The position numbers and the translations under genes are program-made. Shown piece after piece: positions 2,236-29,220 of a stretch of DNA of 64,000 bases. The notes under the pieces are model-generated. The model did no database searches, was not told the DNA's origin, and saw only the letters and a program-made list of their open reading frames with translations. Location of the stretch: the IMG/VR virus record IMGVR_UViG_3300004806_000016; one strand, 5' to 3'. Source of the DNA: a virus. Numbering within the stretch: position 1 is the stretch's first letter; every line of letters begins with the position of its first letter.

Positions 2236-2264
2236 GGGGGAGATCTTCGGGTCTCCCCCATTTT
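2236..2264 (+). terminator. Rho-independent terminator
   Basis: GGGGGAGATC-TTCG-GGTCTCCCCC hairpin followed by ATTTT. Confidence 0.8.
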
Positions 2265-2270
2265 CATTGA

Positions 2271-2278
2271 TATAAATA
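2271..2278 (+). promoter_or_regulatory. T4-type late promoter TATAAATA
   Basis: Exact gp55 consensus 30 nt before the ATG at 2308. Other exact copies at 6828, 11552, 27926, 55203 (+) and 56045-56052 (-). Confidence 0.8.
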
Positions 2279-2307
2279 CATGATCTAATTTCTAAGAGGG
2301 TGTATTC

Positions 2308-3642
2308 ATGTTTAAGTTTAAAGATTTTCTAACGGAAGCGAAGAAAAAAGAAGAAGATGATTTTAAAACAGGCGATTCTGCTGGTAAACTTTTTGAATTA
2401 CTTAAAGCCAGAGAACAAAATGGCGGAACGTTTCCCGAATCTCACAGAGTTGAAGGCAAAACACCAACTGATATTCATAACAAGATGGCTGCTAAAATGT
2501 TTGGTGATGAATATGAAAAACATCCACAATATAAAAATCTTGTTAAAACAGCACAAATTGCTGCAAAAGCAAACGATACTTTCAACCAATCAGAACATGG
2601 TCATGATGTTAAGAAAGGTTATCAGAGAGTCGCATGGACATCTCAACCAGCAGATCATCAAAAAGAAACAGGTCATGAAGATCCAAATTCTGTAGCCGAT
2701 AGTATCCCGACATTAAGTCATGGCGCTATGATTGCGCATTCTGACAAATTAACAGGTAAAGGTCAATCAGTCAACTATAAGAATCCAGGTTCTAAGACTA
2801 TGGAGATGTTGGCTCAGACTAGTTTAAAAAAACATACTGAACCTCATGCAAAATTGTTAAAGGACAAAAAGTTAACGAGTGGCGAAGAAGGTCATAATCA
2901 ATACAAAGCATTAAGAGATTCTGATAATCCAGAAGATCAAGAAACAGCAGCTTCAGTAAAGAAATCGGCTGATGTAGTCAACCAAAAATTTGCTAAAGAT
3001 ATACATGCTGGTCTGTTGGCTCAACAGGCTAGAGATGCTCAAAATGGTACTAATGAATTGAGAGATACTATCGTTAAAGCAGTAGCTCCTAAGACTCACC
3101 TTAAGACAGTCGTTACTCATACTGAAGTCGATAATCATGGTAATCATGCGCATACTAAAGTTTATGACTTGCACGATCACGTCAACCAATACTTAAATAA
3201 TTTCGAAAATTTACACGTAGATCCAGTCCACAAACAAGGGCAATCTTCAGTCACAGTTTATGGTCATCATAAAAAAACTGGTAAAAGAATGAGATTGATG
3301 GGTCTTTCAGTTTATTCTGGGGGTAGACCAACAACCATTTCTCCTAGAGGCGCCATAACTCTTCCTAGCGAGAATCATCCTGATGTTGAATATACTAATC
3401 ATCATATAGTTGGCGCTAATGGTGAACATCAAACAAATACTCCTGTTAAACAGAAACATTCTGTAGAAAAACCAGTAGAACAAAAGAAACCAAAAACAAG
3501 AGAACCAGGCCCAAGAGCTTTATCGAGTATCGTAAAGCCAAGACCTAAAATTGTTACTAATCAAGAACAGAAACAACAGAAAACCAACAACAGCAGACAA
3601 TCATCAATTGGTGGTAAGAATTTTTATGGTGAATCAGAATGA
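2308..3642 (+). CDS. Putative internal head protein, possibly PD-(D/E)XK nuclease-like
   Basis: N-terminus MFKFKDFLTE resembles the T4 capsid-targeting sequence. GKLFE...SVAD...HSDK spacing suggests a restriction-like fold (weak). His/Lys-rich. Confidence 0.5.
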   Translation: MFKFKDFLTEAKKKEEDDFKTGDSAGKLFELLKAREQNGGTFPESHRVEGKTPTDIHNKMAAKMFGDEYEKHPQYKNLVKTAQIAAKANDTFNQSEHGHDVKKGYQRVAWTSQPADHQKETGHEDPNSVADSIPTLSHGAMIAHSDKLTGKGQSVNYKNPGSKTMEMLAQTSLKKHTEPHAKLLKDKKLTSGEEGHNQYKALRDSDNPEDQETAASVKKSADVVNQKFAKDIHAGLLAQQARDAQNGTNELRDTIVKAVAPKTHLKTVVTHTEVDNHGNHAHTKVYDLHDHVNQYLNNFENLHVDPVHKQGQSSVTVYGHHKKTGKRMRLMGLSVYSGGRPTTISPRGAITLPSENHPDVEYTNHHIVGANGEHQTNTPVKQKHSVEKPVEQKKPKTREPGPRALSSIVKPRPKIVTNQEQKQQKTNNSRQSSIGGKNFYGESE

Positions 3643-5540
3643 TCAATTTCAGACAGTTTATCATTGAGGAAGAACAGCAAGAAGGCAAGAAACTCAAGCA
3701 TCTAACTCACATCGAAGACATGCCAATCCATCATGGGCATGAGGGTGTTGCTGCTGCCGATGCTATGCTTAGGGATACCCATAAGGCATTGACTGGCAAG
3801 GGAATGGGTAAGTCAACCATATCAACAAAATATGATGGCGCTCCTTCTATCGTTTATGGTCATCACCCAGAGACTGGTAAATTCTTTGTTGCTTCTAAGT
3901 CAGCTTTCAATAAAGATCCAAAGATAAACTATACACCTGAAGATGTAGAACGTAATCATGGTCACGCTCCAGGTCTGGTAGAAAAACTAAAGGCAGCATT
4001 AGAACATCTTCCTAAAGTCGCGCCCAAGAAAGGTGTGTTCCAGGGCGATGTTATGCATACGCCAAACGATGTTGAAGATCATGATGGTAAGTATCACTTT
4101 ACGCCAAACACCATCAAGTATTCTGTAGGTAAAGATTCTACTGAAGGTAAAAAGATTAAGAACTCGAAGTTCGGTATCGTTACTCATACTCAGTATGATG
4201 GTAAAGATATGGGTTCTATGAGCGCTGCTCCTATCAGTCAGGAAAACAAAGATAAGTTTAAGCAACATCCTGACGTACATCAGATCGACCCTGCGACGAA
4301 TACGGAGGGTGCACACTATACTCCTGAGATGCAAAAAGAATTTGCTAATCATATGGAGAATGCGAGACGCACCTACGCTAATATGGACCACTCAACCCCA
4401 GAAATCACAAAAGGCCATGAGATAAATCTTGAGGCTCATGTTAACGACATGGTTCGTAAGGGTGGCACTCCATCAGTCGAGGGTTTTATCTCACATCTTA
4501 AGAATAAGAAGATGAAAGATGTAGAGAAACTAAAATCCCCAGCTGGTAAAGAAAAGAAAGCCAGAGAGCATGACGATAACATAGGTCATGTCGAAGACAA
4601 CAAAGAACACTTTAAGAATCTATTAGATCTACACAGTCATCTACAGAAAGCCAAGAACGTTCTGGTTAGAGGATTGAATTCATCGGGTAGCCCATATGAG
4701 CATTCCGTTGACGGCAAGAAGACTGATCCCGAGGGATTCGTAATCAATCGTGGCGATCATATGTCTAAGCTGGTCAATCGCGATGAGTTCTCAAGAATGA
4801 ACCTTCTTGGCGCTGGTAAGATGAGCAAGAGAAACGAACCAGCAAAAGAAGAAGATGATAAGCCAATCGTCTATGCGCATGGTAGAATGAATCCACCACA
4901 TGCTGGCCATGAAGCTGTGATCAATAAAGTCCATGAGCTTGCTAATCAACAGGGTGCAGATCATAAGGTCGTATTGACTCATACTCAGGATCCTGAGAAG
5001 AATCCACTATCACCACAAGATAAGCTGGCTCATGCTAAGAAACTATTCCCAAAGACAAACTTCGGTCTATCGGATGACGAGCACCCAACACTAATAGAAC
5101 AGCTTGCTAAACTAAACAAGGCTGGCCATAAGAAACTGACAATGGTTGCTGGCGATGATCGCGTAGAGGGTTATAAAAAACTATTGAACGATCGCAACGG
5201 TAAAGATTTTGATTTTAAAAAGATTGATGTAGTATCGGCTGGTGGTCGAGATCCAGACTCTGAGGGCGTTGAGGGTCTTTCGGCTTCAAAGATGAGAGAC
5301 CATGCTATCAACGGTCGTGCTAAAGAATTCGCTGCTGGGCTACCAAAAGGAACAAGCCCAGAACATGCTAAACAATTGATGCAAGATACAGCCAAGGGAA
5401 TGGATATTCCTATCACTCCAAGCACTCATCCTGTTACTCTTAAACGTCATGCTCTAAGAAATGATCCGATCGGCCATGCTGCTCAGAAAGAGTTAAATAG
5501 AAGAGCTGCCGAAAAAGTAATGAGTAAGAAGAAAAAATGA
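3639..5540 (+). CDS. Fusion of an RNA/DNA-ligase-like nucleotidyltransferase (DUF6267-like) and a HIGH-superfamily cytidylyl/adenylyltransferase
   Basis: Ligase motifs TKYDG, FVASKS, FQGDVM, EGFVI and KLV in order. C-terminal GRMNPPHAGH, VAGDDR and SASKMR. N-terminus MINFRQFIIE. Confidence 0.75.
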   Translation: MINFRQFIIEEEQQEGKKLKHLTHIEDMPIHHGHEGVAAADAMLRDTHKALTGKGMGKSTISTKYDGAPSIVYGHHPETGKFFVASKSAFNKDPKINYTPEDVERNHGHAPGLVEKLKAALEHLPKVAPKKGVFQGDVMHTPNDVEDHDGKYHFTPNTIKYSVGKDSTEGKKIKNSKFGIVTHTQYDGKDMGSMSAAPISQENKDKFKQHPDVHQIDPATNTEGAHYTPEMQKEFANHMENARRTYANMDHSTPEITKGHEINLEAHVNDMVRKGGTPSVEGFISHLKNKKMKDVEKLKSPAGKEKKAREHDDNIGHVEDNKEHFKNLLDLHSHLQKAKNVLVRGLNSSGSPYEHSVDGKKTDPEGFVINRGDHMSKLVNRDEFSRMNLLGAGKMSKRNEPAKEEDDKPIVYAHGRMNPPHAGHEAVINKVHELANQQGADHKVVLTHTQDPEKNPLSPQDKLAHAKKLFPKTNFGLSDDEHPTLIEQLAKLNKAGHKKLTMVAGDDRVEGYKKLLNDRNGKDFDFKKIDVVSAGGRDPDSEGVEGLSASKMRDHAINGRAKEFAAGLPKGTSPEHAKQLMQDTAKGMDIPITPSTHPVTLKRHALRNDPIGHAAQKELNRRAAEKVMSKKKK

Positions 5541-6820
5541 TGGATGAAGACAAGCTATTAAAAAATCTAGCAAAAGCTCTAGGTAATGAGAATTTATTAG
5601 AAGAGCTTGAACAGAAAAAAATAAAAGAAGAACAGCTCTTAGAAAATATCAATAGAGCGTTTACTGGTCTTTCTTTTAAAGAAAAGACGCAGGTCGAAGA
5701 GGCATTTGAGAATCCTGTTCCTATAATCGAAGATGTTCCTGTTGGGTTTACAGCCCCGCCATCAAAACCTGGAGAACCAGCTGCTATTCCGCTTGGAGCC
5801 CAGCCATTACCACAGCTTCCTCATAAAGATTTTGTTACCAAAGCAGTTGATGCATTATCTCAGAAACCAAGAGATGAATATGTAGCTGCTGTTGATGCTA
5901 TTCCAAATAGTATCCGCAAGGAACTTGATATACTAAAGAAGACAGTTACTGATCTTCATCGCTTTTCTTCACGCATCTCTCAGATGGGCGGCGGCGGTGA
6001 AGTCAACCTTCGCCATTTAGATGACGTCAATAGATCATCTATCGCTGACGGTCTCTATCTTCGCTACGACGCAGCTACAAAGAAGTTTGTGTTTGACGAT
6101 CCAGTTTCCAGTCCAAACTTATTGAATGTCGCCTCTGATATTATACCATCAACGACTCTAACATATACTATTGGTAATACAACACATCGCTGGGATTCAT
6201 TATATGTTGGTTCTAACTCCATTACCTTTTCGGACTCTCTAGGTGGTCCAGATCAGGTATTGTCAGTTGCGAATCAGGTATTCTATATCACTCAAGGTGC
6301 AGGAACAAACACGGCATATAACGCCAATGCGGGATTCAATGCTGGTGGGATCATTTTACAAAACTATACTATTCAGTTAGCAAATACATCGCAAAATTTG
6401 ATAGTCGGTTCTACTTCCGTAAACACAAGCGTTATCTTTAACCAAAACATCAAAGCAAATACAACTATTACTTTTACTGACAATACCGTACAAAATACAG
6501 CTTATAAGGCTCCTAACGTAAGAATAGCAAACGTAATATCAAATACAGTGTTAATTGATTTTGCATCGGACAACTTTGTCCACATTCATACCAACGATGG
6601 AACAGTTACTGCTAACTTACAGAATCTTACTGCTGGTAAAGTTGTTGAGCTATTCATCTTTAACAATGTCGGCGGTACTCAGCAGTTCAACCATGGCGTT
6701 TCCTCAACACAGGCTACAGGCGGTCAATCTTTTTATCTAAGCTCTCACAATACGATGTATGTTAAGTATTTCTGTTTAGATGGAACTGCAAACAATACGT
6801 TCGTAGCTGCTATAACATAA
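5537..6820 (+). CDS. Virion structural / fibre-like protein
   Basis: GGGGEVNLRHLDDV motif, then a Thr/Asn-rich beta-type C-terminal region. Confidence 0.6.
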   Translation: MMDEDKLLKNLAKALGNENLLEELEQKKIKEEQLLENINRAFTGLSFKEKTQVEEAFENPVPIIEDVPVGFTAPPSKPGEPAAIPLGAQPLPQLPHKDFVTKAVDALSQKPRDEYVAAVDAIPNSIRKELDILKKTVTDLHRFSSRISQMGGGGEVNLRHLDDVNRSSIADGLYLRYDAATKKFVFDDPVSSPNLLNVASDIIPSTTLTYTIGNTTHRWDSLYVGSNSITFSDSLGGPDQVLSVANQVFYITQGAGTNTAYNANAGFNAGGIILQNYTIQLANTSQNLIVGSTSVNTSVIFNQNIKANTTITFTDNTVQNTAYKAPNVRIANVISNTVLIDFASDNFVHIHTNDGTVTANLQNLTAGKVVELFIFNNVGGTQQFNHGVSSTQATGGQSFYLSSHNTMYVKYFCLDGTANNTFVAAIT

Positions 6821-6827
6821 GTTATTT

Positions 6828-6898
6828 TATAAATATTACGTTGCAGAAGGCTACGGCAATCCTGCGTTGTAAACTGGTTAAGCCCAAGGGAAACACCA
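6828..6898 (+). promoter_or_regulatory. Late promoter plus structured 5' leader
   Basis: TATAAATA at 6828-6835. Hairpins GCAG..CTGC and TGGT-..CCC-AA-GGG..-ACCA enclose the RBS region. Confidence 0.5.
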
Positions 6899-7690
6899 AT
6901 GTCGAAAGAAAAAAGTCTCCATTCTAGTCCTCAGCTAGTATTCGAAGAGCAACAAAGGGTTGTCGTAGACCCTTCGCACAAAGAAATTATGTCTTTGTAT
7001 AGAAAATCAGAACAATCAGGCCACTCGTTTGATACTCTCTTAGAGGTGTATCGCCGTGGATTCATGGTGTCTGGCGATCAACAGAGCGCATTTAATAGAG
7101 TTAATTCGTTCATTGCAGAAGGTAAGGCGTACGAGATGGATAAAGATTTAGTAGAAAAGCGTGGCCTCTGGGATAATATTCACGCCAAGCGCGAGAGAAT
7201 CAAACATGGTTCTGGTGAACATATGCGCAAGCCTGGATCTAAAGGTGCACCGACTGCGCAAGCTCTTAAACAATCTCAGACTAAAGAAGCATATACAGGC
7301 GCTGAACCAACAACATCAAATACAGATAGTCCATCAAGTCGTTTTGTTGGAACAAATGAATTGACTGATACATATGCTAACATGACTCCAGGTCAATCAA
7401 AAGCAAAGACAATTAAGCGTATCGTTAAAGAAGTTAATGAAGATAAAAAAGGTTATAAGAATCCAACTGGTGGCTTGACTCAGAAGGGCAGAGACCATTA
7501 TAATAGGGAAACTGGTGGTCATCTCAAAGCACCAGTAACTACTCCTCCTTCAAAACTAAAGAAGGACAGTAAAGCTGCTGGTCGTCGTAGATCATTCTGT
7601 GCTCGTATGGGCGGTGTAAAAGGTCCGATGAGAGACGAACACGGTAAGCCAACTCGTAAGGCTCTCGCTCTAAGAAAGTGGAACTGTTAA
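6899..7690 (+). CDS. Multi-module basic head-associated protein (DUF6321-like C-terminus)
   Basis: Modules GLWDNIHAKRERIK..GSGE.MRKPG and GGLTQKGR...RRRSFCARMGG...ALRKWNC, both of types common in phages. Confidence 0.65.
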   Translation: MSKEKSLHSSPQLVFEEQQRVVVDPSHKEIMSLYRKSEQSGHSFDTLLEVYRRGFMVSGDQQSAFNRVNSFIAEGKAYEMDKDLVEKRGLWDNIHAKRERIKHGSGEHMRKPGSKGAPTAQALKQSQTKEAYTGAEPTTSNTDSPSSRFVGTNELTDTYANMTPGQSKAKTIKRIVKEVNEDKKGYKNPTGGLTQKGRDHYNRETGGHLKAPVTTPPSKLKKDSKAAGRRRSFCARMGGVKGPMRDEHGKPTRKALALRKWNC

Positions 7691-7857
7691 TGAAAACTTT
7701 TAAACAATTTGTCTCAGAATTAACTACGCCAGTAAGCACTACTGGCAAGAGACAGACTGTGCATATGAAGACTGGCCCTGCTCGCGACATGACTGGTAAG
7801 ATAATCCATACTCCAATATTCAAGAGTGCAAGCTCAAGAAGTGGTGGTGGAAAATGA
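7690..7857 (+). CDS. 55-aa internal-protein-like peptide (not in ORF track)
   Basis: MKTFKQFVSELTTPVSTTGK...; translationally coupled at both ends (TAATG and ATGA overlaps). Confidence 0.7.
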   Translation: MKTFKQFVSELTTPVSTTGKRQTVHMKTGPARDMTGKIIHTPIFKSASSRSGGGK

Positions 7858-8480
7858 AAACGTTCCTTCAGTATCTAGAAGAGTCAAGAAGAGGGACTCA
7901 TCACTACGTAGATATTGACGATACACTGTTCCATACTACTGCCAAGATTGGTGTTAAAGATCAACATGGTAAAATCTATAAGAGATTGAGTAATAGCGAA
8001 TTTAATACCCATGAATTACCAAAAGGTCATTCGTATGATTTTGCTGAGTTTAGAGACGCTGATAAATTCTCAAAAGAATCTAAACCCATCAATCCGATGA
8101 TATCTAGAGTTAAGAAGATAGCAGATAATATTAAGAAACACCCAAACAGTAAGGTGCATCTATTGACTGCTAGAGCTGATTTTGATGACAGAGAAAAGTT
8201 TCTTGATACGTTCCGTAAACATGGTTTAAATATGAATGATATACATGTCCACCGTGTAGGTAATGTACCTGGGAATGAATCACCTGCTAAGAAAAAAGCC
8301 GATCTTATTCGCCAACATCTACATAAGTTTGGTAATAAGAAGGTAGTGATGTATGACGATAGTAAAGCTAATCTTAAAGCATTGCTAAATATGAAGAAGG
8401 AACACCCTGATGTGAATTTTTCTGCATTTCATGTTGGGCCACATGGGGAAATGACACCACATAAAGATGGAGATAAATGA
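7854..8480 (+). CDS. HAD-family phosphatase (polynucleotide 3'-phosphatase-like) with capsid-targeting-like N-terminus
   Basis: DIDDTL, LTAR, K and YDDS motifs I-IV; starts MKTFLQYLEE. Confidence 0.8.
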   Translation: MKTFLQYLEESRRGTHHYVDIDDTLFHTTAKIGVKDQHGKIYKRLSNSEFNTHELPKGHSYDFAEFRDADKFSKESKPINPMISRVKKIADNIKKHPNSKVHLLTARADFDDREKFLDTFRKHGLNMNDIHVHRVGNVPGNESPAKKKADLIRQHLHKFGNKKVVMYDDSKANLKALLNMKKEHPDVNFSAFHVGPHGEMTPHKDGDK

Positions 8481-8803
8481 TGGAATTTTTAATTGCAATT
8501 GGATTTATGGCAGTAGTTTCTACTGTTGTCTATAAAATGATCACCAAGAAAGAGACAGCTGAAGTTGCAGCTACTGAGACTGCAAAAGAAGTTGTTACTG
8601 CAGCCGAGCCAGTCGTTGAACAGGTTGCTAACACTGTTCTTGCTGAAGTAAAGGCTGAGGCACCAGTAGTAGCAGCTGCTATTGAAGCTGTAACTGAACC
8701 AGTTGTTGAACAAGTTGCTGCTGCTGTTGAAACAAAGGTTGAAGAAGCAGTAACTGAAGTTGTTGCTAAGATTAAGAAGCCAAGAGCTAAGAAGGCAAAA
8801 TAA
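8477..8803 (+). CDS. Membrane-anchored Ala/Val/Glu-rich protein
   Basis: N-terminal TM segment, EPVVEQVA repeats and a basic tail. Confidence 0.6.
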   Translation: MMEFLIAIGFMAVVSTVVYKMITKKETAEVAATETAKEVVTAAEPVVEQVANTVLAEVKAEAPVVAAAIEAVTEPVVEQVAAAVETKVEEAVTEVVAKIKKPRAKKAK

Positions 8804-9240
8804 TGGATGAGCTTATTGAACAGATGAAAGTTGTGTTGGCGAGTGTATTTGCACTCTATTTAAAGACACATTATTTTCATTGGAATATTGAAGGACCAAA
8901 CTTCCCTCAATACCATTCTTTCTTAAACGAACTCTATGAAGAGATCTTTGAATCGGTTGATGCTCACGCTGAACAGATTCGCACCATGGGTGCATATGCT
9001 CCAGGTTCTTTTGTTCGTTTCAAGGATCTATCAATCATCCAGGATGAGATAAACATTCCTAGTGCTATGTCTATGTTGACTCAGCTTCAGAAAGATAATC
9101 TGGCAGTCATAGTAGAATTAAAGAAAGCAAATGATCTCGCCGAGAGAGAAAATGCTGTCGGCACTGCGAACTTTCTACAGGATAGAGTTGATAAACATTA
9201 TAAGCATGATTGGATGCTTAAATCTATTACAAAGGCATAA
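8803..9240 (+). CDS. dps: Dps/ferritin-like DNA-protection protein
   Basis: HYFHWNIEGPNF..H..L.ELY....D..AE.IR signature; C-terminal KH.WML. Confidence 0.9.
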   Translation: MDELIEQMKVVLASVFALYLKTHYFHWNIEGPNFPQYHSFLNELYEEIFESVDAHAEQIRTMGAYAPGSFVRFKDLSIIQDEINIPSAMSMLTQLQKDNLAVIVELKKANDLAERENAVGTANFLQDRVDKHYKHDWMLKSITKA

Positions 9241-9242
9241 AA

Positions 9243-10502
9243 ATGGACAACAAATTTAAGTCACTAGAAACGATTATCAAAGAGATGGCAAATATCCATC
9301 GCAACTCAGAATTGCGTAAGAAGGTGACTAATGTTGCTCGTCCAGATACAGCGACTGATCCGACTGATGTAAAGTCAAAGATTGCTAAACAGGCTGAGAT
9401 CAAGAATAAGATAATTGATGAGGCTAAGGACGAAGCTCCTAAAAAAGATAGCAAGAGCGACGAATCCCATATGGATGATCCTAAAAAGGTCAAGGGCGGA
9501 AAGACTGAAGTTGACGTCCAGCCAACAACCGATGATAGACTGAGCGATGATTCGGCTGAGACTAAAGATTCAGATAAGACTCGCAGAAAAGAAAACAAGA
9601 AGATCGGTCAGAAGGGCGCACCAATTAAAGAGGCAGCTGATACTTCTGTTAAAAAATATGAAGGCCCAAAACATACATATGGCCCAGACGGTACTCGTCA
9701 TAAAGAAGTCTTAAAACAGATTAAAGACGTAATAACTAAACACCTAAATCACACTAATTTTAACAAGGAGGAGACTCAGATGTTCTCAGACAAGAAATTC
9801 GGAGTTTCCGAATCAGTAATCAAATCAGTTCTTGCTATCGTAGAAGCCGACAAGAATAAGTCAATTGACGGTGCTGAATCAGGTGCGAAGTCAGAAAAAG
9901 ACGAGACTAAAAAAGTAGCTAAGATGAAAGGTATGTGCCCATCTTGCAAAAAGAGTCCTTGTGAATGCATGAAAGAAGAAAAGTCATGTGGTTGTGGTGG
10001 TAACTGCAAGTGCTCTACAAATGAAGAGCTAAAGGGCGGTCAGAAGAAGCTAGATAAGAACCACAACGGTCATCTAGATAAGCAAGATTTCGAGATGCTT
10101 CGTGGCAAGAAAAAAATGAAAGAAGAAGCTGAACATCTTGACGAGATCTCAAAGAAAACAGCAATGAGTGCTTATCAAAGCGCAACTTTTGTAGACGATG
10201 AACACCCAAAAGCTGATGCGATTCGTGGTCACATTGAAAAGAAGTGGGGTAAGGAAATGGGTAAGCATGCTGATGCTCATGCTCATCTTTCAAACTATCC
10301 TCGCCACAATCCATTTCAAAAAGATGATAAGTTAAAGAGTGCAAAGCCAGCCTCAAAAATGAGAACAACTGCTTCAGGTAAAATCCATAAGCAAGACATT
10401 GCTGCAAAGAAAACGGAAATTAAGTCACGCATGAAAGAAGAAGTTGAATTTTCTGCTGAAGAAATTGCACGTATCGAAGCAATCGCCAAGGAAATGGAAT
10501 AA
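9243..10502 (+). CDS. Highly charged prohead-core/internal-head-like protein
   Basis: Lys/Glu-rich with repeated xKEE motifs, a Cys cluster and an EF-hand-like LDKNHNGHLDKQDF. Confidence 0.6.
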   Translation: MDNKFKSLETIIKEMANIHRNSELRKKVTNVARPDTATDPTDVKSKIAKQAEIKNKIIDEAKDEAPKKDSKSDESHMDDPKKVKGGKTEVDVQPTTDDRLSDDSAETKDSDKTRRKENKKIGQKGAPIKEAADTSVKKYEGPKHTYGPDGTRHKEVLKQIKDVITKHLNHTNFNKEETQMFSDKKFGVSESVIKSVLAIVEADKNKSIDGAESGAKSEKDETKKVAKMKGMCPSCKKSPCECMKEEKSCGCGGNCKCSTNEELKGGQKKLDKNHNGHLDKQDFEMLRGKKKMKEEAEHLDEISKKTAMSAYQSATFVDDEHPKADAIRGHIEKKWGKEMGKHADAHAHLSNYPRHNPFQKDDKLKSAKPASKMRTTASGKIHKQDIAAKKTEIKSRMKEEVEFSAEEIARIEAIAKEME

Positions 10503-11281
10503 TGCACAGTTTCAGCCAGTGGCTAGAAGAAGCCAAGAAAAAAACATCAGAGAAGTATCCTGTATCTGCTGATGGCATCCAGAAAGGTGCCAACGGCGGT
10601 CAGGGCGGCGTAAACGATAAGAACGATTCAACAGATGATCGTACTGAGAGCGTCGAAGAAGGTTTTGTTTCTGGCAATAGACCAAACTCAAAACCAAATG
10701 CTTCTACCCACTCAAAGGCAGCGAATGCTCCTTCTAGCGCAGCATCATCACAAAATGCAGCGAATGCTGTTGTTGCTAAGAATATGGCTGCTTCGATAGC
10801 TGCTAAGAAACAACAAGAAAAACAAGCTGAGGACCAAAAGAAGATAGCTCAGAAGAATGCTGAAGCCGAAAAGGCCAAGGCGATTAATCCACCATCTTCA
10901 AATCAGAAACCAACTACAGTTTCTAAACCAGCGAAGGCAATGGGTGAAGAGCTTGTTACTGAGGGTCGCCCAAGAAAAGATGCTAATCCTGATGAGGGTC
11001 CGTCAAAACACCCAATCAATCAGCTAAGATTGGTTATCTCTACTCGTGGCATGCATCATTTTGAACATAAGAATGGCAAGAAAACAGCCATGAGCCCACC
11101 AACTGCTCATAAGCTGCTTGCTAGACATGATAATATGAAGACACCAGCAGAAAAAGATGAATATGCACAGCGTATGCATCATAGCCCAGAATCATTGAAA
11201 GATGTAATTCATGGTAAACCTGCTGAACATAAGCCAAAGATCTCTCTTGGTGGTTCTAAGAATGTAGGTGGGGTAAAATGA
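10502..11281 (+). CDS. Putative internal head protein
   Basis: Starts MHSFSQWLEE (CTS-like); low-complexity Ala/Lys. Confidence 0.55.
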   Translation: MHSFSQWLEEAKKKTSEKYPVSADGIQKGANGGQGGVNDKNDSTDDRTESVEEGFVSGNRPNSKPNASTHSKAANAPSSAASSQNAANAVVAKNMAASIAAKKQQEKQAEDQKKIAQKNAEAEKAKAINPPSSNQKPTTVSKPAKAMGEELVTEGRPRKDANPDEGPSKHPINQLRLVISTRGMHHFEHKNGKKTAMSPPTAHKLLARHDNMKTPAEKDEYAQRMHHSPESLKDVIHGKPAEHKPKISLGGSKNVGGVK

Positions 11282-11556
11282 GTTTAAATGTGAACAATCT
11301 AGTTATTGTTCCGCCTCCCCCAAAAGAAACAATGGGTGGAGTTACTGCGTCTAAGATTGTCATTTTAGGAAAACCAGAAGAAATTACTCCTCAGACAACT
11401 GGAGCCATATCTGCTGGTAATATTGTAATTCAGAATAAACCAAAAGCTAGTTATGCAGTATTAAGAGATCCTAGAGTATTGCAGAAAAAGACCCCAGATA
11501 AGACTAAAAGGGTATCTAGTTTTATGCATGACATGACGACAGTTCGTAAAATATAA
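11278..11556 (+). CDS. Hypothetical protein
   Basis: ATGA overlap; three NxVI-type repeats. Confidence 0.5.
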   Translation: MSLNVNNLVIVPPPPKETMGGVTASKIVILGKPEEITPQTTGAISAGNIVIQNKPKASYAVLRDPRVLQKKTPDKTKRVSSFMHDMTTVRKI

Positions 11557-11591
11557 ATAATAAAAAACAATTCCTTAGGAGGATATCTAAA

Positions 11592-19708: not shown

Positions 19709-20772
19709 TAGTAACAGATTGTTATGAGCCATCTATCAATGGTGTAGTGACAACTCTCAAAAATATAAAGAAACAGGCTGAGTTGGACGGATACAAAGTA
19801 TTGATCGTCGAGCCATCATTGTTTCATAATTTCAGTTCTATGATCTATCCAGATATTCGTATATCTATTCCTTTCAGTTTTACTAAGATGGTTGATGAGT
19901 TTCAGCCAGATTTTATTCATATTGCCACAGAAGGTGTGCTTGGTGTAACAGCTCTAAACTATTGTGCGAAACGTAATTATAATTTTACGACTGCGTTTCA
20001 CACAAAATGGGGTGAGTTTTTAAATAGCATACTCCATATACCAGTAAGCTGGACTAATACATGGCTCCGCAGATTCCATAGAGATAAAATAGTATTCTGC
20101 ACCTCTAAATCTATGATTGAATACTTGACAAATAACAAGATTGGAGGTAAACTTATAAATTGGTCGAGGGGAGTAGATACAGACATATTTGGCCCACCAA
20201 GACTGATGAAAAACCAGACCAATACTTTTATAAAGCCAAGAAATCTGTTGACAGTGAATAGAATTAGCAAAGAAAAGAATCTGGATGCATTCTGTCAGCT
20301 ATCAACTTTCCTATATAACCTTACCGTCGTAGGCGATGGTCCTTATCTAAAAGAACTAAAGAAAAAATACCCAAAGGTAAAATTTACTGGAGCTCTGGTT
20401 GGTGAAGAGTTAGCTGCTGCCTATAGAGAAGCTGACTGTTTTGTGTTTCCTAGTAAGAATGATACGTTTGGTGTTGTGATTATTGAGGCGCAGATGTTGG
20501 GAACGCCAGTCGCTGCTTATCCCGTGACTGGGCCAATTGATATTATTAAAGATGGAATAAATGGAATTACACACAAAAGTTTAGAATTTGCTGTGAGAAA
20601 AGCATTAACGCTTGACAGGAAGACTGTTTACGAGTATACTTATGAAAATTACTCTTGGAAGAGCGTCTGGAATACATTTAAAGAAAATATGGTAGGAGTA
20701 GAAAAAAATGATAACAAGCCCAATCCTAGTGACGAAACGAGATGGAACGAAAGAACCGATAGATCTCAATAA
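19693..20772 (+). CDS. GT4 glycosyltransferase (Agt-like glycolipid synthase)
   Basis: VTD...INGVVTTL, IHIATEG.LG, RGVD, RISKEKN and FPS..DTFG.V..EA...GTPVAAYP motifs. Confidence 0.85.
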   Translation: MQKILIVTDCYEPSINGVVTTLKNIKKQAELDGYKVLIVEPSLFHNFSSMIYPDIRISIPFSFTKMVDEFQPDFIHIATEGVLGVTALNYCAKRNYNFTTAFHTKWGEFLNSILHIPVSWTNTWLRRFHRDKIVFCTSKSMIEYLTNNKIGGKLINWSRGVDTDIFGPPRLMKNQTNTFIKPRNLLTVNRISKEKNLDAFCQLSTFLYNLTVVGDGPYLKELKKKYPKVKFTGALVGEELAAAYREADCFVFPSKNDTFGVVIIEAQMLGTPVAAYPVTGPIDIIKDGINGITHKSLEFAVRKALTLDRKTVYEYTYENYSWKSVWNTFKENMVGVEKNDNKPNPSDETRWNERTDRSQ

Positions 20773-27291: not shown

Positions 27292-27971
27292 TGAAAACAA
27301 TAATAAAACACATTTTTGGTAATATTGATGAATATGATTTACAGGTTTATAAATTATCATTAGATCTTGAGGGGGAACCAGAGTATAAAGCATTAGAACA
27401 GGGTTGGTCTGTTCAATATGGTAACTGGTATCCTTCTAGAATGGTAAGGCTAGATCTCTCGAGATATAATAAGACGCCAAAACAAATCAAGAACTATACG
27501 TTTACTCATCACGATAACCCAGAAGATTATTCTGAGTTTGAAAGGGTGTTTGAGGAATTCGTAGTAGCAAGAGACTTTACCCCACAATATAAGATAGCCA
27601 CTGATCTTGATAGGACTAGCTGGCTATCAGTGCATAAAGAAGATAGATTGGTAGCTTTCACTAAGTTTATCAATTATGACGGTGGATTAGAGAGTCAGTT
27701 TACTGCTTGGGATTACTCTGAGCCTAAATTGTCTATTGGCGTAAAGATAGTTGACTATGAAGTTGAGGTAGCAAGATCTAAAGGATTGGACTATCTTTAC
27801 ATCGGTCCTGGGTATGGTAAATCCTGTTTCTATAAGTCTAAATTTCAGGGTTTCGAGTGGTGGACTGGTACTGAATGGTGCGGCGACATACAGGCATATC
27901 AAGAAATATGTATGCGCGATTCAACTATAAATACATTTGATGATTTATCCAAACTGATATGGGACCACTGA
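27291..27971 (+). CDS. Aminoacyl-tRNA--protein transferase-like (ATE1/Bpt GNAT fold)
   Basis: ALEQGW, R.VRLDL, WDY..PKLSIG, A...GL.YLYIG and YK..F..FE motifs. Confidence 0.65.
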   Translation: MKTIIKHIFGNIDEYDLQVYKLSLDLEGEPEYKALEQGWSVQYGNWYPSRMVRLDLSRYNKTPKQIKNYTFTHHDNPEDYSEFERVFEEFVVARDFTPQYKIATDLDRTSWLSVHKEDRLVAFTKFINYDGGLESQFTAWDYSEPKLSIGVKIVDYEVEVARSKGLDYLYIGPGYGKSCFYKSKFQGFEWWTGTEWCGDIQAYQEICMRDSTINTFDDLSKLIWDH

Positions 27972-27972
27972 T

Positions 27973-29220
27973 ATGCCTGGAGTAATAAGCAAAAAGGGTA
28001 AAAAGAACCCAAAGCTAATTAAAGTCTTGACTAAGAGAGCAAGACAACTGATGAACGATAATCGTTTCAAAGTCAGAATGGCAACTATCAACAGAGTTCC
28101 TATCAATAAGAAATTTGATATTCCCTATCTAGCAGGTTATTCTAAAGACGGCAAGACAGTATACATTGACCGTCATCTTAAGACAATATTTCAGGGTGTT
28201 GATATATCTCAGTTCCTTCGCATACATGAGATAGCAGAAAAGACACTACTAGATTTAGATCATCTTACATATCAAGAAGCCCACCATATCGCTACACATC
28301 TAGAGCGCATGGCTGTTGAAAAGGTAGGTCTTAACTGGGAAAAATATACAAAATTCCTAGAACCATACATTAAGAGAGTCCATGGTGAAGATTTAAAGAT
28401 AGTTCCTAAAGATTTAGATCTTGAGCCATACGCCGATGAACATGATCCTATCCTCAGAAATCTTATGAAGAAGGAAGGCGTAAGGGATATTAAAGCCAGA
28501 ACGGTCAGAGAATCAATAGGACTTGATGAAGTCAAGATCAGCCTAGAATATCATGACGAGCTGAATCCTGTTCTGTGGGATGGTTTTAAATTAAAGCCAG
28601 AAGTAAGAAACAAACTGATGGAATTTGCGAAGGCATGGGCCAGTTTCGCGAAAATACCACTTGACATTATACAGGATATCATTATAATAGGTGGTAATGT
28701 TAATTATAACTACACATCTAAATCAGACATAGACGTCCATCTTATCCTTGATCGCGATCAGCTGGGCCAAAACAGAGAGATGGTTGATGAATATCTCCAA
28801 GACAAGAAAGTCCTATGGACTCTCACACATAAGGTGTCTGTACTCGGATACCCAATCGAACCCTATGCGCAAGACTCACATGCAAGTTATCCCCGTGGTC
28901 AAGGCGTCTACAGTATCAAACGAAACACGTGGGTTCAATACCCTCCTCGCGGGAAATACGACTTTAAGAACGATCCAGCTCTAAAGAGAAAAGTCTTATT
29001 CTATAAGAGACTGATCGATACCATCATCAAAGATAAGATGGATGTTGGTGCTGTTAGAGATCTAAAGGCAAAGTTGAGAGATATGCGTGCTGCTTCTATT
29101 GCCGATGGTGGTGAGTTTGGTTTCGAGAATCTAGTGTTCAAGGAACTAAGGAACCGTGGTTATCTTGATAAGATGAACAAATATGAATTAACAATGAAAG
29201 ATCAGGAGTTGAGTTTATGA
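27973..29220 (+). CDS. Pol-beta-superfamily nucleotidyltransferase with extra N-terminal domain
   Basis: IIGGNVNYNY...SDIDVH, IEPYAQD and GEFGFENLVFKELR motifs; TATAAATA at 27926. Confidence 0.75.
   Translation: MPGVISKKGKKNPKLIKVLTKRARQLMNDNRFKVRMATINRVPINKKFDIPYLAGYSKDGKTVYIDRHLKTIFQGVDISQFLRIHEIAEKTLLDLDHLTYQEAHHIATHLERMAVEKVGLNWEKYTKFLEPYIKRVHGEDLKIVPKDLDLEPYADEHDPILRNLMKKEGVRDIKARTVRESIGLDEVKISLEYHDELNPVLWDGFKLKPEVRNKLMEFAKAWASFAKIPLDIIQDIIIIGGNVNYNYTSKSDIDVHLILDRDQLGQNREMVDEYLQDKKVLWTLTHKVSVLGYPIEPYAQDSHASYPRGQGVYSIKRNTWVQYPPRGKYDFKNDPALKRKVLFYKRLIDTIIKDKMDVGAVRDLKAKLRDMRAASIADGGEFGFENLVFKELRNRGYLDKMNKYELTMKDQELSL

Follow-up and report, generated by a model that had tools for sequence, protein, structure and literature searches.

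Do late genes of an uncultured phage encode enzymes that travel in the phage head and enter the host together with the DNA? The question is raised by positions 2271-11556 of a viral sequence of 64 kb (IMG/VR record IMGVR_UViG_3300004806_000016), here analysed on both strands and referred to as the window. Five open reading frames (ORFs, named by their first position) begin with a similar decapeptide: MFKFKDFLTE (ORF 2308), MINFRQFIIE (ORF 3639), MKTFKQFVSE (ORF 7690), MKTFLQYLEE (ORF 7854), and MHSFSQWLEE (ORF 10502). A previous reading of the letters alone (hereafter, the sequence-only reading) had likened these N-termini to the capsid-targeting leader of T4 internal proteins, and had proposed that the phage pre-loads catalytic proteins into its head. 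All five ORFs exist, with the N-termini that it quoted.

The phage is an uncultured freshwater T4-like (Kyanoviridae-related) myophage. By protein similarity it groups with marine and freshwater T4-like phages, including cyanophages, the pelagimyophage HTVC008M, and the methylophage Melnitz. The window begins within a gp41-type helicase gene, and the gene order after this gene is identical in Melnitz. At the DNA level no close isolate was found, as a megablast search with the block in 50,697 phage records gave no match.

The view that the five leaders are T4-type capsid-targeting sequences, carried by catalytic and small basic proteins, is strongly supported by their conservation, their spread over unrelated families, their match to the T4 determinants, and the virion proteomes of relatives. 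Leaders of this type on catalytic proteins would therefore mark these proteins as head cargo, and the stretch 2271-11556 as a whole probably represents two late operons encoding such cargo.

Occurrence and conservation of the leader

Both strands of the window were scanned for the strict motif ^M..[FYW]..[FYW][LIVMF].E, at every ATG, GTG, or TTG start with 30 or more codons behind it. The motif occurred at exactly five starts (2308, 3639, 7690, 7854, and 10502) and nowhere else in the window; each of the five is the ATG of a + strand gene, and together they lie within two putative late operons. Each leader has F at position 4, F/Y/W at position 7, L/I/V at position 8, and E at position 10. Among the 117 crude ORFs of the window, the pattern without its Met matched 8 of 19,257 internal positions, which gives 0.049 expected N-terminal matches against the five observed (Poisson P ~2e-9). 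The motif is thus enriched at N-termini over the internal background, and the probability that all five matches fall by chance within the 11-gene block 2308-11556 is ~3e-6. Matches to a looser motif at 19783, 30927, and 9598 (the last on the − strand) were judged to be due to chance. As for the start of ORF 7690, its ATG overlaps the stop of the preceding gene, and a GTG at 7678 would lengthen the frame; the ATG is the likelier start. Once the leader is removed, the mature forms of the tagged proteins are all basic, with isoelectric points (pI) from 9 to 11.8.

The conserved positions of the five leaders are written with synonymous codons (TTT/TTC, GAA/GAG, CTA/ATC/GTC), and this variation therefore points to selection on the peptide. 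In the T4 leader, residues 4 and 7 chiefly determine targeting, while processing depends on residues 8 and 10 (PMC9026906). The positions conserved here (4, 7, 8, and 10) are the same ones. In the T4 record, ipII and ipIII begin with MKTYQEFIAE, and ipI with MKTFKEFTST (in full, MKTFKEFTSTTTPVST). ORF 7690 starts with MKTFKQFVSELTTPVST, and 13 of its first 17 residues are identical to those of T4 IPI, an identity that extends beyond the ten-residue motif. We take this leader to connect the phage with T4 directly at the sequence level, although the two are phylogenetically very distant.

Then, we followed the leader in homologues of single ORFs and in 80 IMG/VR loci fetched through DUF6267, the domain that forms the N-terminal part of ORF 3639. 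Among 120 homologues of ORF 3639 (45-66% identity), 90 carry the strict motif at their start, and in nearly all the others it is shifted by 1-8 residues. The alignment of 36 DUF6267 sequences has an invariant E10 and F4 in >90%; similarly, M1 and E10 are invariant and F4 exceeds 90% in the alignment of 28 homologues of ORF 2308. In this latter family the leader stands at residue 1 in all 27 full-length homologues, and in one more it lies three residues in. Conservation of the decapeptide in homologues, like its N-terminal enrichment and its T4-type character, therefore agrees with the sequence-only reading. Five homologues of ORF 2308 (P0134, P0135, P0138, P0142, and P0147) contain, within ~20 residues after the leader, one or two extra sites of the form h-x-E-A, where h is hydrophobic (LLMEA, LLLEA, FLIEA); these sites suggest that trimming may proceed stepwise.

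The leader is also modular. Of the strict-motif ORFs in the 80 loci, 132/133 lie on the gene strand. When the decapeptide was removed, these ORFs and the five of the window fell into 25 families without mutual similarity, the largest being DUF6267/transferase (70), DUF6321 (21), the ORF 2308 family (11), and the HAD family (8). In loci that encode DUF6267 and the transferase, fused in ORF 3639, by separate genes, both genes have a leader of their own. The internal proteins of T-even phages likewise form a diverse cargo that has the leader alone in common (PMC3012670).

Leader-tagged proteins in the virion proteomes of cultured relatives

We scanned the complete genome of cyanophage S-CREM2 (174,876 bp), which offers 6,246 candidate starts. 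The strict motif gave five matches, one at an internal Met of nrdA and four where annotated genes begin, namely at gp6 (SAM hydrolase), gp14 (APH-like kinase), gp136, and gp154 (cytidylyltransferase). Each of these four gene products belongs to the published virion proteome, which comprises 52 of ~219 genes (hypergeometric P ~0.003). That proteome was obtained by mass spectrometry of CsCl-purified virions, and its authors listed these proteins as non-structural proteins that ‘may be encapsulated’. Two further virion-detected proteins of S-CREM2 start with near-matches to the motif, gp13 (MKDLHSFLTE) and gp15 (MNFSEFNE). In the Cas9-like gp12, also detected in virions, the stretch LRFASFMAE lies 17 residues in, and the annotated start of this gene may be misplaced.

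Similar enzymes were found in two other cyanophages. The virion-detected NMNAT of S-SCSM1 (ORF91) starts with MKSFLQFLKE, and the virion-detected cytidylyltransferase of S-SZBM1 (gp140), the only enzyme in the virion proteome of that phage, starts with MRFRQFIIE. A term search of the proteome table of the S-SZBM1 paper gave no match for gp141, the leaderless DUF6267 protein that adjoins gp140. A Peptidase_S77 (gp21) protease scored above the Pfam cut-off in each of Melnitz, S-CREM2, and S-SCSM1; PF03420 had no match in five IMG/VR fragments, which are only 41-62% complete, so that this result is uninformative. Our literature search found no paper linking the leader to these enzymes.

Could the decapeptide be something other than a targeting signal, for instance a feature that serves translation initiation or the mRNA, or a remnant of shared ancestry? 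The codons that follow the ATG are indeed A/T-rich, and A/T-rich codons in this position generally favour initiation. Against this, it is the amino-acid sequence that is conserved while its codons change synonymously, the mature parts belong to unrelated folds, the motif predicts virion presence in S-CREM2, and ORF 7690 matches IPI beyond the motif. We therefore consider such an origin of the decapeptide highly improbable.

Predicted activities of the tagged proteins

ORF 2308 (2308..3642, + strand, 444 amino acids) gives a mature form of 48 kDa and pI 9.3, predicted to have an MspI/HinP1I-like PD-(D/E)xK fold and a disordered basic tail (residues 378-444). The AlphaFold2 model has a pLDDT (predicted local distance difference test) of 84.5 and is confident over residues 20-375. 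By VIA alignment, it matches MspI (1sa3, Z 8.8 over 201 residues) and HinP1I (1ynm, Z 8.5 over 206 residues); all five chains with Z ≥5 are restriction endonucleases, and the top 20 matches are mostly PD-(D/E)xK enzymes. Foldseek gave probabilities of 0.96 and 0.87, but E values of ~0.01-0.05. Neither the search of PDB sequences with the ORF 2308 profile, which returned nothing useful, nor a tblastn search of isolates with ORF 2308 and ORF 10502, which returned no match, added to this. Four residues are invariant in the family: E30, D131, S145, and K147. In the model, E30 lies in the first long helix, D131 just before the strand 132-135, and S145-x-K147 within the strand 143-150. By these places, which are those expected for PD-(D/E)xK residues, the four are candidate catalytic residues. 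Ser at the middle position of the (D/E/N/Q)xK motif is unusual; in MspI and HinP1I, the second acidic residue of the motif is replaced by N or Q.

ORF 3639 (3639..5540, + strand, 633 amino acids) encodes a fusion, 69 kDa in its mature form, of DUF6267 (~20-390), a linker of 26 residues, and an NMNAT-like transferase domain with a HIGH motif (~405-590); in the AlphaFold model, residues 1-16 are disordered. DUF6267 has an invariant K64-x-D66-G67 (KxDG, motif I) in 36 homologues. E365, G366, K377, and R381 are invariant in the same set, and their assignment to motifs IV and V was made by eye only. With VIA-align, DUF6267 matched the RNA ligase NgrRnl (5cot_A) at Z 9.3 (root-mean-square deviation 3.6, 183 residues) and the tRNA ligase Trl1 (6n0t_A) at Z 7.8 (195 residues); the fold score from the whole-protein search is dominated by the other domain, so that the score for DUF6267 is moderate. 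In its Atlas neighbour cluster, 48% of the members are RNA_ligase (score 0.76), which we treat as a lead only; the Atlas searches in general yielded no more than weak leads. None of the 36 DUF6267 members matched a ligase Pfam family at E ≤1, and the DUF6267 profile had no match in the T4 genome and, among PDB sequences, only marginal PPAT-type matches and no ligase. Homology to T4 Rnl1/Rnl2 was dropped, since the profile found nothing in that genome. Overall, a lysine-nucleotidyl-transferase (RNA-ligase-like) domain is the probable identity of DUF6267, as predicted from its model.

The second domain is characterized by HAGH (HxGH) at residues 421-424, with G423 and H424 invariant, and by S548 and R553, invariant within ...SASKMR. 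Its structural matches include NMN/NaMN adenylyltransferases (3h05, Z 13.5; 1f9a, 13.1; NadM 2qjt, 12.9) and 4nah (12.8), and Foldseek retrieved NadD and PPAT at E ~4e-4. The CTP_transf_like family scored 19.6 bits against a cut-off of 21 for ORF 3639, and matched 33/36 homologues (best E 1.2e-6); the PHROG ‘cytidyltransferase’ matched ORF 3639 at 1e-55. The idea that the fusion is a polyprotein was rejected: 73 of 87 DUF6267-transferase linkers have no [LIVM]-x-E site, and none has a remnant of the leader. As the linker has no protease site, the two domains would probably remain joined. Leaderless copies of DUF6267 also exist in cultured cyanophages, at L095:2486-3679 (S-SZBM1 gp141) and L090:1414-2298 (S-SCSM1).

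ORF 7854 (7854..8480, + strand, 208 amino acids) encodes a HAD-superfamily phosphatase, with DxDxT at residues 20-24, T105, K148, and DD at 168-169. HAD motifs I-IV are intact, as D20, D22, T24, T105, K148, D168, and D169 are invariant among 10 homologues. Taken together, the motifs, models, and fold searches bear out the fold calls of the sequence-only reading (ligase-like, HIGH transferase, HAD, and nuclease-like).

More doubtful is the function that the sequence-only reading assigned to these folds. In that proposal, an end-healing phosphatase, a ligase-fold enzyme, and a nucleotidyltransferase make up an injected repair or anti-defence kit, acting for example against anticodon nucleases or NAD depletion; in its RNA form, the kit would heal and seal RNA ends and so reverse anticodon-nuclease damage to tRNA at time zero. 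Consistently, the DUF6267 model aligns best with the RNA ligases 5cot and 6n0t, the HAD protein matches PHROG 415 ‘polynucleotide kinase’ (7e-8), and the HAD, nuclease-like, DUF6267, and transferase genes adjoin in several loci. That PHROG match is, however, the one link of ORF 7854 to polynucleotide phosphatases. The HAD profile found nothing in the PDB sequences, nor at E ≤10 in the T4 genome, which encodes PseT, and homology to T4 PseT was dropped on this ground; tblastn of the protein against isolates gave one weak match. Its Pfam neighbours are instead DUF2608, Acid_phosphat_B (acid phosphatase IIIB), and LNS2 (lipin-type). Moreover, the block has no kinase and no 2',3'-cyclic phosphodiesterase, and PADLOC gave no match for six block proteins. 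Together with the lack of a ligase Pfam match for DUF6267, these results do not sustain the pairing of an end-healing phosphatase with a ligase, nor the wider kit, and we consider RNA repair at infection improbable.

Alternatively, the cargo could help to supply NAD+ or nucleotides, or could mend the genome as it enters. The proposed roles are then regeneration of NAD+ by the NMNAT-like domain, cleaning of 3' ends by the phosphatase, and closure of nicks in the injected DNA by the ligase-fold domain. The nuclease would be directed at unmodified host DNA, which presupposes modification of the phage's own DNA. The best matches of the HIGH domain, which are NMN/NaMN adenylyltransferases (3h05, 1f9a, and 2qjt), fit this possibility, as does the fact that NMNAT-like proteins recur in virions of cyanophages. 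On the other hand, PPAT, FAD synthetase, and cytidylyltransferases score nearly as well as NMNATs for this domain, and the block has no polymerase. We put this set of roles forward tentatively; NAD+ supply, genome repair, or attack on host DNA is at least as plausible as tRNA repair.

The two remaining tagged proteins resemble classical internal proteins in character. ORF 7690 (7690..7857, + strand, 55 amino acids) would yield a mature peptide of 45 amino acids with pI ~11.8, and a relative of 54 amino acids is present in locus L005. ORF 10502 (10502..11281, + strand, 259 amino acids) is basic, mostly of low complexity, and largely disordered; its C-terminal module (~145-240) recurs at the C-termini of larger phage proteins.

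These two proteins bring in a further explanation, in which the cargo is loaded and trimmed but serves within the head, as core, as scaffold, or in DNA condensing, and has no enzymatic role after ejection. In favour of it, the mature forms share their basic character (pI 9-11.8) with the T4 internal proteins, no catalytic fold is recognisable in ORF 7690 or ORF 10502, and the S-CREM2 motif gene gp136 lies in a head-assembly module. This account meets two difficulties. The catalytic signatures (KxDG, HxGH, DxDxT...DD, and D131/S145/K147) are invariant in divergent homologues, and a purely structural role is disfavoured because it would not preserve them; in addition, T4 Alt provides a precedent for enzyme cargo (PMC9503650). 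A role confined to the head is thus unlikely.

The two putative late units and comparison with known systems

The tagged genes lie in two tightly coupled units on the + strand, 2308-6820 (three genes) and 6899-11556 (eight genes), with overlaps of 1-4 bases between most adjoining genes. An intrinsic-terminator-like hairpin (2236..2259, + strand; 10-bp stem, UUCG loop, and T run) closes the unit upstream. It is followed by a T4-type late-promoter octamer, TATAAATA (2271..2278, + strand), 29 nt before the ATG at 2308, which heads the first unit. A second copy (6828..6835, + strand) stands 63 nt upstream of the second unit and heads it, and a third (11552..11559, + strand) marks the end of the block and opens the next putative late unit (ORF 11592). 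The sequence-only reading had placed all the tagged genes downstream of late promoters; this stands for each operon (octamers at 2271 and 6828) and fails for the single genes.

The other genes of the block have no strict leader. In the first unit, ORF 5537 (5537..6820, + strand, 427 amino acids) is acidic, leaderless, and translationally coupled. The second unit opens with a basic DUF6321 protein (6899..7690, + strand, 263 amino acids), in which DUF6321 is C-terminal and the strict leader is missing: F4 and F7 are lost and only ...PQLVFE remains at residues 11-16. Short DUF6321 relatives start with a leader (MISFKEYLEE, MKSFIDYLIE), and longer ones start with MKKFNSFETQLGE (L007:5642, L019:11776, L036:2077, and L038:11200); DUF6321 proteins may be another common head cargo. 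ORF 8477 (8477..8803, + strand, 108 amino acids) has a hydrophobic N-terminus, an Ala/Val/Glu-rich body, and no leader; no homologue was found among the fetched related loci. Within the same cargo operon, ORF 8803 (8803..9240, + strand, 145 amino acids) encodes a leaderless Dps/ferritin-like protein (Pfam Ferritin, 6.8e-24), with 29 homologous ORFs in the 80 related loci. ORF 9243 (9243..10502, + strand, 419 amino acids) is highly charged (K+R 0.21, D+E 0.18) and without a strict leader. Near residue 190 it contains a segment, MFSDKKFGVSESVIKSVLAIVE, similar to the stretches with which separate proteins of other loci begin (MFAKSKVSQSMIDAVNKVLGE, MFTKNSVSQSMIDAVQSVLAE), which could represent a second type of leader or a fusion cut by the head protease. 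A basic, leaderless protein of 92 amino acids (ORF 11278, 11278..11556, + strand) closes the unit. Elsewhere in the window, a TATAAATA octamer at 27926 precedes a leaderless ORF of 415 amino acids (27926-29220), whose C-terminal half is 47% identical to gp156 of S-CREM2, a protein found in virions.

Several observations weigh against assigning the block to head cargo. The TATAAATA octamer is not enriched in the window (7 found, 4.8 expected). The nuclease and ligase fold matches are moderate, at Z 8.5-9.3, a range where chance arrangements occur. The phage's own protease and capsid genes are outside the window, exact-match scans of IMG/VR and JGI metagenomes gave no copy of the contig, and the virion evidence is from relatives. 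What the published proteomes show is presence in virions, as distinct from injection or trimming at the N-terminus, and abundant proteins may, as their authors note, have been carried over. Lastly, not every member of the HAD family is tagged, as the leader is degenerate in some homologues: one subgroup (L021, L022, L027, L031, L032, and L037) starts with MIKKRFKEFVGSG, in which both aromatics are kept and Glu10 is lost. Proteins of this form may be loaded without cleavage, or may have lost targeting.

All considered, assignment to head cargo remains the preferred reading, and the steps that it implies can be outlined by analogy with T4. The cargo genes would be transcribed late. During prohead assembly, the leader aromatics at positions 4 and 7 would bind the scaffolding core, and a gp21-family protease would then remove the decapeptide after Glu10, at an h-x-E site formed by the hydrophobic residue 8 and Glu10. 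The basic mature proteins would stay among the packaged DNA and be ejected with it at infection, thus reaching the cell before phage gene expression. The delivered set would consist of a restriction-fold nuclease, an uncut ligase-like/NMNAT-like fusion, a HAD phosphatase, and two small or disordered basic proteins. From the leaders and the T4 analogy, packaging and trimming of the tagged proteins are likely, and their ejection into the host somewhat less so.

It is also possible, if rather doubtful, that delivery of a ready-made set of enzymes is routine among T4-like phages from lakes and oceans, with an endonuclease that spares the presumably hypermodified phage DNA and enzymes that mend nucleic acids or restore NAD+. 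If so, the leader would be an ancient, general address label, through which any gene could come to encode injected cargo, and the proteins that uncultured phages inject could be predicted from their sequences. Such enzymes, if injected, would be the phage's first move and candidates for counter-defence or genome repair. The leader offers a rule for recognizing head cargo of aquatic T4-like phages in sequence data, anchored in T4 genetics and in agreement with three virion proteomes. It would explain why cytidylyltransferase/NMNAT-like, SAM-hydrolase, and kinase proteins recur in cyanophage virions. For two families so far uncharacterised, DUF6267 and that of ORF 2308, a fold and a place of action can be named as probable. 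The loading mechanism itself is not new; new cargo families are added to a known one. Two points are new here: that the leader matches published virion proteomes (S-CREM2, S-SCSM1, and S-SZBM1), and that ORF 7690 has a leader like that of IPI.

The closest known system is that of the T4 internal proteins IPI, IPII, and IPIII (Mullaney and Black 1996, via PMC9026906 and PMC3012670), which share with the proteins described here the ten-residue leader and its pattern of residues (4 and 7 aromatic, 8 hydrophobic, 10 Glu). The T4 genes are late and those of the window putatively so; in both cases the mature proteins are basic, and unrelated cargo has only the leader in common. The cargo differs: here it consists mostly of large enzymes, from 23 to 69 kDa, and in T4 of small inhibitors, and no mature part here resembles IPI-III. 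Furthermore, T4 belongs to Straboviridae, whereas the phage of the window falls in a marine/freshwater Kyanoviridae-like branch and is known from sequence alone.

As regards enzyme cargo, the T4 ADP-ribosyltransferase Alt enters the prohead, is trimmed by gp21, and is injected with the DNA, so that it acts before phage genes are expressed (PMC9503650, PMC9026906), in the same way as proposed here. Cleavage of Alt occurs at both of its termini; in the tagged proteins a site can be seen at the N-terminus only. The enzyme classes also differ, those of the window being a nuclease fold, a ligase fold with a HIGH transferase, and a HAD phosphatase. Compared with MspI and HinP1I, ORF 2308 has 8-9% identity and no partner methyltransferase, and it carries a helical insertion, the disordered basic tail, and the leader. 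Finally, the cyanophage transferases (S-CREM2 gp154, S-SCSM1 ORF91, and S-SZBM1 gp140) are homologous to the C-terminal domain of ORF 3639 (33% identity for S-SCSM1, 32% for S-CREM2), likewise carry the leader, and are among the proteins that mass spectrometry found in CsCl-purified virions. Each is encoded by a gene of its own, whereas here the transferase is fused to DUF6267 through a linker without protease sites.

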